This document shows, piece by piece, positions 6,071 to 7,014 of a stretch of DNA of 17,922 nucleotides. Where the stretch lies: the UHGV virus genome UHGV-0157346. The stretch is one strand, 5' to 3'. The notes under the pieces were generated by a model. It saw only the letters and a program-made list of their open reading frames with translations. It was not told where the DNA came from and ran no database searches. The translations under genes were made by a program, and so were the position numbers. This DNA is from a virus. Position 1 is the first letter of the stretch; the number at the start of each line of letters is the position of its first letter.

Positions 6071-7014
6071 GCAATCCCCCTGTCTGCAAACTTTCCTTCC
6101 CGTACTCCCGTTAACGAATCTTCCCTCAGCAGGTAATCAAAATCTGCCGTCCAGCCCGTGTCGTTGTCTCCGAAGTAAAACGGCTTGGCCTGATGCACAA
6201 ACGCCCTGACATACGCTCTGAAACCGTCCACGTTTGGCGTTTTCAGTTGCGGGATGATTTTCTTCAGGCGGCGTTTGCGTTTCTCGTTGACCGCAACAGC
6301 GTGTGGCAGTCTGTCACCGACTTCGGTGTTGTAGGCGTTCAGGAAGGATTCGTAGTCGATTCGTTCTGCCTTGCGACGTTCATGTTTAACCTGCCCATCG
6401 CCTCCCCCATTGGGGGGTAGGGGGGTATTATTTATATTCTTGTTAATACCTTCTTGTTCATGATGTGCGGTTGTTTGTGCGGCTTCATGTGCGCTTTCAT
6501 GTGCGGTATGTACGCTGAAAGCCGCGCCATTACTGGCTTCATCATGTGCGGCATCATGTGCGGTTGTTTGTGCGGCTTCATGTGCGGGTGAATTGTCCAT
6601 TTTTTGAGCATATTCATGGTAATTTGTGATAGTGATCACACGACCTTTTTGCTTCTCTCCATCAATGGAGATCATCCCCTCTTTCACAAAAACCTGAAGC
6701 ATCCGCTCAACCTGATCACGGCTTGCCGGCTTGCCATGCCTGTCGCATAACTGAAGACCTAAATCAGCTGCTGTCACAACCAGTTGACCGGGTTGCAGAT
6801 GCCATTCATGACCTTTGAAATTCGCTTTGTATGGCTTTCTGGCGGCATTCAGGAGAAGGTTTTCCCACAGGGTGCGAAGATAAACATCTTTCGCCCATGA
6901 CTGTTTCAGAATGCTCCGGTACAACGGAATGTAACCAGTTTTCTGGTTCTCCATCCTGTTGCTCCTGCGCTCGTGTGCGGCGCTGAAATCGTAGATTTTT
7001 GCTGTATTGCTCAT
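6067..7014 (-). CDS. Replication initiator, lambda O-like, with the origin embedded in its coding sequence
   Basis: 315 aa; N-terminus [10 protein letters not shown] resembles lambda O (MTNTAKILNF); the central region is encoded by the iterons (repeated [10 protein letters not shown] peptide); tightly coupled to the helicase gene. Confidence 0.7.
6395..6458. promoter_or_regulatory. Origin-flanking G/C near-palindrome and AT-rich block, a putative unwinding element
   Basis: cctcccccattggggggtaggggggta followed by ttatttatattcttgttaatacc, immediately beside the iterons and on the same side relative to gene direction as the AT-rich region of lambda ori. Confidence 0.55.
6459..6587. repeat. Origin iterons: two clusters of four tandem 12-bp repeats, consensus yttcatgtgcgg
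   Basis: Units at 6459-6470, 6471-6482, 6483-6494, 6495-6506 and 6540-6551, 6552-6563, 6564-6575, 6576-6587, separated by a 33-bp spacer; a 36-mer is duplicated almost exactly. Confidence 0.8.

Follow-up and report, generated by a model that had tools for sequence, protein, structure and literature searches.

A putative replication origin of 12-bp direct repeats within the O-like initiator gene of a lambdoid prophage

Do the short tandem repeats inside the O-like initiator gene of the virus genome UHGV-0157346 form an origin of replication and, if so, of what kind? The window analysed here (the whole stretch of 17,922 nucleotides) is probably a prophage. A sequence-only reading of it had proposed an origin laid out as in lambda between positions 6395 and 6600, with eight 12-bp repeats in two clusters of four, an adjoining A+T-rich block and a G/C palindrome. 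Our analysis indicates that 6400–6587, which lies within the initiator gene itself, very probably serves a lambdoid (P22/HK97-like) prophage as its vegetative replication origin. From sequence comparison we infer that the initiator binds here, that the DNA is unwound, that the helicase is recruited and that the origin fires. The elements are listed below in the order in which the gene is read.

6067–7014, minus strand: O-like replication initiator gene containing the putative origin (948 bp, 315 amino acids; open reading frame listing and translation)
6619–6957, minus strand: region encoding the N-terminal winged-helix domain, which presumably binds the iterons (Pfam match at amino acids 20–132 and AlphaFold2 model)
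6540–6587, minus strand: iteron cluster 1, four 12-bp direct units, from 6587 to 6540 CCGCACATGAAG, CCGCACAAACAA, CCGCACATGATG, CCGCACATGATG
6507–6539, minus strand: spacer of 33 bp, AAGCCAGTAATGGCGCGGCTTTCAGCGTACATA, whose last bases are a degenerate extra unit, GCGTACAT
6459–6506, minus strand: iteron cluster 2, four 12-bp direct units, from 6506 to 6459 CCGCACATGAAA, GCGCACATGAAG, CCGCACAAACAA, CCGCACATCATG
6425–6458, minus strand: A+T-rich, purine-skewed block, the presumed DNA-unwinding element, AACAAGAAGGTATTAACAAGAATATAAATAATAC (34 bp, 79% A+T)
6400–6424, minus strand: C/G-tract element, CCCCCCTACCCCCCAATGGGGGAGG, with a near-palindrome core (inverted repeat) at 6404–6416
6067–6426, minus strand: coding region of the C-terminal domain, of the HK97/P22-gp18 type, the presumed contact with the phage helicase (essentially identical to the C-terminal halves of HK97 O and ST104 gp18)

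A repeat array within the initiator gene

Tandem Repeats Finder detected period-12 arrays at 6476–6506 and 6540–6587, where the eight repeats had been placed, and a repeat search paired the two clusters as copies of one another. Unit sequences are given here on the coding (minus) strand; read on the plus strand, they match the consensus proposed earlier, yttcatgtgcgg. The array is far beyond chance. CCGCACA occurs eight times in the window against 2.4 expected, a count that none of 200 shuffles reached, and seven of the eight copies lie within 6464–6587. With up to one mismatch allowed, CCGCACAT gave eight matches in 130 nucleotides, whereas 200 shuffles gave two at most. All are direct repeats, and they lack dyad symmetry. 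A terminator-like match at 6477–6494 stems from the repeat sequence itself and was rejected as an artefact. A ninth core match, CCGCACACGAGC, stands apart from the array, approximately 380 bp upstream of cluster 1 and towards the 5′ end of the gene (6969–6980, minus strand; core 6973–6980), and is within chance expectation for a 7-mer.

The gene that surrounds the array had been called an O-like initiator, and the domain searches agree. Its N-terminal domain carries Pfam Phage_rep_O (PF04492; amino acids 20–132, E = 3.3e-15, 56.8 bits against a cut-off of 28.7), the protein matches PHROG 345 ('replication initiation O-like'), and its homologues in CUS-3 and other phages are annotated as O or replication protein. 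An AlphaFold2 model of residues 1–141 (predicted local distance difference test score (pLDDT) 75) is a winged helix, with helices at 44–58, 82–88 and 99–111 and a β-hairpin wing at 115–129. Foldseek matched this model to weak, generic winged-helix DNA-binding regulators only (best E approximately 0.008), and no solved structure matched the N-terminal domain by sequence. This domain ends near amino acid 132 and the HK97-type C-terminal domain starts near amino acid 197, with the repeat units occupying codons 143–186 of 315; the repeats thus lie inside the initiator coding sequence, between the two domains. Each unit spans four codons in frame and encodes [P/A/T/S]-A-[H/Q]-x repeats, and the translation bears out the His/Ala-rich linker that had been predicted.

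Next to the repeats we found the A+T-rich block that the earlier reading describes. It begins directly after the last unit, in a gene that is otherwise 50% G+C, and it includes a 14-bp-spaced AACAAGAA direct repeat reminiscent of ACAAAAGA in lambda and of the HK97 ACAAAAGACAATA repeat. Among relatives the block is conserved at the DNA level regardless of the type of C-terminal domain. The G/C palindrome is also present, as CCCCCA-T-TGGGGG with 6-bp arms (6404–6416), but taken alone it does not stand out statistically: 21% of background 70-nucleotide windows contain an inverted repeat of that length or longer. Runs of C5 and G5 recur after the A+T block in HK97 O, ST104 gene 18, phages S.Inf 5-2 and ENT1, and loci L128 and L133. 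They are kept despite different spacers and encoded peptides (PPNGG, TPQGE, NPPMGD), which hints at a DNA-level role. Origins with other types of right half have inverted repeats at the same place: the lambda palindrome, ATCTAATAAT-AA-ATTATTAGAT, ATTAAATAC-TAAC-GTATTTAAT, GTCATCT-GA-AGATGAC and AGTCAAC-TTGC-GTTGACT. A palindrome after the A+T block was nevertheless rejected as a general significant feature, as by a perfect-arm criterion only 14 of 43 loci rose above their own background and that of the window did not. The C/G element is therefore reported as present, with a putative and unproven function.

Conservation and co-variation among relatives

Relatives were collected by scanning one genome per species with an alignment-based query, which gave 47 diverged N-domain relatives in Enterobacterales prophages (67–87% identity, one at 47%), plus several phages. 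In almost all of them the units are phased at 12 bp and form two clusters (3+3 or 4+4), and a conserved CATCATGAACAAGAAGGTAATAACAA... A+T block follows. Measured between unit starts, the step across the spacer is 45 bp, or 45+12n if units have degenerated or decayed, in relatives down to 46% N-domain identity, and relatives with at least five different iteron sequences have a spacer of the same length and similar sequence (AGTAATGGCGCGGCTT). No known host-factor site was recognised in these 33 bp. A scan of viral contigs with a single N-domain query returned near-identical loci only and is informative on layout stability: across 80 such contigs, the 4+4 layout and the total length are stable.

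It is conceivable that the repeats matter at the protein level only, as an Ala/His tetrapeptide linker born by slippage, and that the origin lies elsewhere. The units are exactly four codons long, in frame, and encode a flexible-looking linker between two domains, and 12-bp tandem repeats can arise and homogenise by slippage. A linker of this kind would not readily account for the pattern of conservation. Over 302 units, the entropy was 0.08–0.99 bits at positions 1–8 and 1.3–1.9 bits at positions 9–12. The third-codon positions of the core, at 0.17, 0.99 and 0.58 bits, were more conserved than ordinary third positions, which averaged 1.18 bits in the N-terminal domain. In the window, all eight core alanines use GCA, whereas the alanine codons of the N-terminal domain are mixed. 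These results indicate that the unit core, synonymous sites included, is under selection at the DNA level. Moreover, unit number and spacer length hold steady among the 80 close relatives, unlike those of a slippage-prone microsatellite.

A further pattern concerns position 5 of the unit, where 21 loci have A (Ala GCA) and 23 have G (GCG, and GAG in some units). This synonymous switch is bimodal between genomes, and within a genome essentially every unit agrees. The base at position 5 co-varies without exception with three residues of the initiator: 82 (Ala/Pro versus Ser/Thr), 100 (Asp versus His) and 118. In the model, residue 82 is at the N-terminus of helix 2, residue 100 is at that of the recognition helix and residue 118 belongs to the wing, all of them parts of a winged helix that usually contact DNA. 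A GCA/GCG switch that is fixed per genome and tracks the DNA-binding domain is not what a purely protein-level role predicts, and it suggests a candidate recognition code, in which Asp or His at residue 100 (with Ala or Ser/Thr at residue 82) would read A or G at position 5. A neighbour-joining tree built with residues 82, 100 and 118 masked requires two independent switches of iteron type.

More distant relatives extend this picture. Where N-terminal domains are 46–47% identical, the 12-bp units differ and the layout of two clusters with a 33-bp spacer is the same. Enterobacter phage ENT1 has CGTCGAAGGTAG/TGACGAGCCTCC (GTCGAA/GACGAG type), Salmonella phage S.Inf 5-2 has CCCGATGAACCA/TGCGATAAACCA (CCGATGAA type) and a Sodalis prophage (L135) has CCGATACA/CCGGTACA. 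These units encode quite different peptides (for example, PDEP/CDKP and VEGS/DEPP), and yet the phasing, the two clusters and the spacer are kept, which again argues against a role confined to the linker. We therefore consider the linker-only explanation improbable. The proposal that the iteron sequence is a distinct one, with its own initiator–origin specificity, fits these data: the units differ from those of lambda and of HK97/P22 and co-vary with the N-terminal domain.

A recombinant of two origin halves and its known counterparts

The initiator gene is followed directly by the gene expected beside it, a helicase gene recognised by its DnaB and DnaB_C matches in Pfam.

3677–6070, minus strand: DnaB-like replicative helicase gene (797 amino acids; Pfam DnaB and DnaB_C), overlapping the initiator stop codon

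Comparison with other phages divided both the initiator and its DNA into two parts. Residues 1 to approximately 190, which comprise the N-terminal domain and the repeat linker, are 75–85% identical to the initiators of Klebsiella phage 2 LV-2017 and Yersinia phage vB_YenM_29.18, whereas the remainder of those proteins, with lambda-type C-termini, is unrelated to the window protein. Conversely, residues from approximately 197 to 315 are essentially identical to HK97 O and to gp18 of the P22-like phage ST104, the N-terminal halves of which are unrelated. The DNA follows the same division. The Klebsiella and Yersinia phages match the window through the units and into the A+T block, of which they share the first part, and continue with lambda's own palindrome, a lambda-type C-terminal domain and a P-like gene. 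HK97 and ST104 match the window in the distal A+T block, in the C/G element and in all of the DNA that follows, the gene for the DnaB-like helicase included. These alignments indicate that the window origin is a recombinant of two origin halves from two lineages. The junction lies inside the A+T block, at approximately 6427–6445, so that the left half consists of the N-terminal domain and its cognate repeats and the right half of the end of the unwinding region, the C/G element, the C-terminal domain and the helicase. The unwinding region thus seems to be the point of crossover between origin halves. Modular exchange of halves is classical behaviour for lambdoid origins. As origin halves are exchanged together with the matching protein halves, it can be argued that the repeats belong functionally with the N-terminal domain.

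The layout had been said to mirror the lambda origin, and the order of elements agrees with the annotated lambda genome (NC_001416). Both origins occupy the middle of a PF04492 initiator gene, where its linker is encoded, and in both, iterons, an A+T-rich stretch and a palindrome (28 bp in lambda, TTCGTCAGAGAATTCTGGCGAATCCTCTGAC; the near-palindrome of the C/G element in the window) follow one another in the same direction relative to transcription. In lambda, too, the N-terminal domain and iterons make up one exchangeable module, and the C-terminal domain and the right half of the origin make up another. The likeness ends at the units themselves. A lambda-type origin has four to six dyad-symmetric iterons of approximately 18–19 bp; lambda has four 18-bp sites at a spacing of approximately 20–24 bp, whereas the window has eight 12-bp direct units and a fixed 33-bp spacer. 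The lambda reading thus stands for the order of elements and does not extend to the units, which are short direct repeats rather than dyad-symmetric iterons of approximately 19 bp. The initiators are barely alignable pairwise (32% over 69 amino acids, E = 0.005), and the partner of the lambda initiator is the loader P, whereas the window protein is paired with a DnaB-like helicase of the phage. Lambda O binds its iterons, and P22 gene 18 has four repeats of approximately 20 bp (PMC8022706).

Closer counterparts are found among the phages with P22 gene 18 or HK97 O and a gp12-type helicase (the 'Eru2' region of Shiga toxin (Stx) phages). They have the same distal A+T block, C/G element, C-terminal domain and helicase as the window, and the same gene order of cII, oop, a small open reading frame, initiator and helicase. 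HK97 and ST104, however, have an unrelated N-terminal domain and four dyad-symmetric iterons of approximately 19 bp (ATTAGCCGACTTGGCTAAT), in place of which the window has the CCGCACAT-type module. Short direct repeats of 11–12 bp are also found in gene 18 of phage L, a distant O homologue that likewise has a DnaB-like helicase partner. Its six imprecise 11-bp repeats were taken, from the sequence, as the likely origin (PMC8022706), and by that published description, through which phage L is known here, they differ in sequence (TGTCCAACGGA). In the Stx phages 933W and P27, which have six lambda-type iterons, the iteron number is unlike that of lambda and the initiator linker is longer accordingly, as it is in the window. 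These phages have lambda-type iterons, O and P, and the window differs in its iterons, N-terminal domain and partner. The O proteins of Stx phages bind their own iterons in vitro (PMC7466680).

The head-to-tail direct repeats, the presumed winged-helix binding and the adjoining A+T-rich element also recall the iteron plasmids (RepA/RepE/π). Those replicons have iterons of approximately 17–22 bp outside the rep gene, Rep monomers with two winged-helix domains and usually DnaA boxes, whereas the units of the window are 12 bp long and intragenic. We found no Rep_3-type domain in the initiator by Pfam, where PF04492 was the only match, and thus neither a Rep_3 or two-winged-helix Rep, nor iterons outside the rep gene, nor nearby DnaA boxes mark the locus as an iteron-plasmid origin. 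There were no DnaA boxes near the array; near-matches occurred at chance level and only at 1210, 1359 and 5929 in the window, the nearest (5929) lying inside the helicase gene.

In iteron plasmids, the repeats have a second task, the control of copy number. By analogy, the units might be initiator sites that serve mainly for control, through titration, handcuffing or autoregulation, with unwinding and initiation at another site, and the ninth core match near the 5′ end of the gene could be counted in favour of this arrangement. That match, however, does not exceed chance, the array abuts an A+T-rich block just as in the lambda origin, and neither a second repeat cluster anywhere in the 17.9-kb window nor a DnaA box near the array offers an alternative site. 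A role in control alone is accordingly hard to credit, and we return to the reading of 6400–6587 as the origin itself.

Mechanism, setting and distribution

How would such an origin work? The O-like protein would be made from the pR transcript, which would also cross the origin. Its N-terminal winged-helix domain is predicted to bind the eight 12-bp units head to tail, probably with one domain per unit, because 12 bp is approximately the footprint of one winged-helix domain and the units are direct repeats; base contacts would be made by the start of helix 99–111 and by the wing. The number of sites equals that of lambda, in which four dyads make eight half-sites, but this is only an analogy. 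The resulting nucleoprotein complex may then destabilise the adjoining A+T-rich block (6425–6458), and the HK97/P22-type C-terminal domain would recruit the phage's own DnaB-like helicase without a loader of the lambda P type, after which host primase and polymerase would take over. On a dnaB (GrpD55) host, where P–DnaB-dependent initiation of lambda is blocked, growth of a lambda hybrid with P22 orf48-18-12 is normal (PMC3349717).

Several observations weigh against this interpretation. The units are short direct repeats, so the lambda stoichiometry of one dimer per iteron is not simply transferable. The N-domain model is of moderate confidence and its fold matches are weak. The co-variation at position 5 comes from only about two independent events, and homogeneity of the repeats within a genome could partly reflect concerted evolution, by slippage or gene conversion, and not selection for binding. 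Finally, the palindrome is unexceptional by statistics, and the same bases encode a Pro/Gly linker. It is possible, although we hold this only tentatively, that the subfamily builds an origin complex unlike that of lambda, with single winged-helix domains arranged head to tail in two arrays at a fixed 45-bp step. If true, this would be of moderate interest. The 33-bp spacer could in that case be a host-factor site or a hinge for pairing of the arrays.

The putative origin is surrounded by the early-right operon of a lambdoid prophage, which, in the numbering of the window, is transcribed leftward. Upstream of the initiator gene we found a small open reading frame, a cII homologue, a cro-like gene, a pR-like promoter and a divergent cI-type repressor gene.

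7968–7996, minus strand: pR-like promoter, TTGACA-17-GAAAAT (predicted, by consensus scan only)

The promoter lies between the divergent cI gene (8044–8676, plus strand) and the cro and cII genes, and a transcript from it is predicted to run through cro, cII, the small open reading frame, the origin and the helicase gene. The small open reading frame (7017–7290, minus strand), between oop/cII and the initiator gene, belongs to PHROG 2519, for which no function is annotated. It occupies the position of P22 orf48 and HK97 gp53 and has no counterpart in lambda. An oop-like antisense RNA (approximately 7285–7365, plus strand) overlaps the 3′ end of the cII homologue. Over its last approximately 45 nucleotides, terminator hairpin GCTCGGTTGCCGCCGGGCGTTTTTT included, it is almost identical to lambda oop (in the window, this 3′ end lies at approximately 7330–7365), and it gave no Rfam match at the gathering threshold. 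Elsewhere in the window, 11151–11209 (plus strand) matches the lambda cIII thermoregulator element (Rfam RF01804, 88.5 bits against a cut-off of 50), and there is therefore a cIII-like gene in the early-left operon of the prophage.

The helicase gene contains an insertion. Its two extein parts are 95–99% identical to the 458-amino-acid 'P' helicase of CUS-3. The 339-amino-acid insertion between them (4451–5467, minus strand) starts directly after the Walker A motif GMGK, ends in ...IVTHN|T, and matches Hint and a LAGLIDADG homing endonuclease; it looks like an intein in the P-loop. The first residue of the insertion is Ala and not Cys or Ser, which suggests a non-canonical (class 2/3-like) splicing mechanism. 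With the hallmarks of an intein, the insertion need not inactivate the helicase. The same insertion was found in records of Stx2a-converting phages.

The element is present, at 95% identity or more, in 272–283 of 5,426 complete Escherichia coli genomes (approximately 5%), in the K1 phage CUS-3 and phages JEP4, HF4s, Gally and Kapi1, and in 48 records of Stx2a-converting phages (LC616031–LC616078). That the locus is a decayed, non-functional origin of a defective prophage, as a probable prophage with an interrupted helicase gene might suggest, is very unlikely, given that the insertion is intein-like, that the reading frames are all intact, that CUS-3, JEP4, HF4s, Gally and Kapi1, which have the same origin at 97–99% identity, are isolated plaque-forming phages, and that Stx2a-converting phage records have it too.

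The 48 Stx2a records are probably the 48 Japanese O121:H19 phages classed as 'Eru2' in PMC8951638, judging by the matching count. The Eru2 reference initiator is a 273-amino-acid HK97-like protein, whereas the 48 records have the initiator described here. Eru2 therefore seems to cover at least two origin specificities that have only the C-terminal domain and helicase in common.

Database entries for this region need some care. Most proteins that match the N-terminal domain are annotated as 'partial' and end in or near the repeat linker, because the repeats break short-read assemblies. One record from Salmonella Infantis (NZ_CP148879.1), a 5,555-bp 'circular plasmid', starts inside the repeats, and is a case of replicon fragments being mis-filed. 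We rejected it as a natural mini-replicon; it has no intact initiator and helicase genes and is most likely an assembly fragment. We also rejected as plasmids the 36.7-kb 'plasmid' records, which are whole P22-like phage genomes.

In the searchable literature on CUS-3, HK620, iterons and Eru types, we found no published description of a CCGCACAT-type 12-bp unit in a 4+4 arrangement, and a full-text search for CATGTGCGG and CCGCACATG gave unrelated matches only. In kind, the locus is mainly textbook, as an origin within the initiator gene that takes part in the exchange of initiator halves, and the CCGCACAT-type unit would add one specificity class. Together, the natural A and G variants of the iteron and the Asp and His variants of the putative recognition helix would provide a ready system for studying how initiator–origin specificity evolves.

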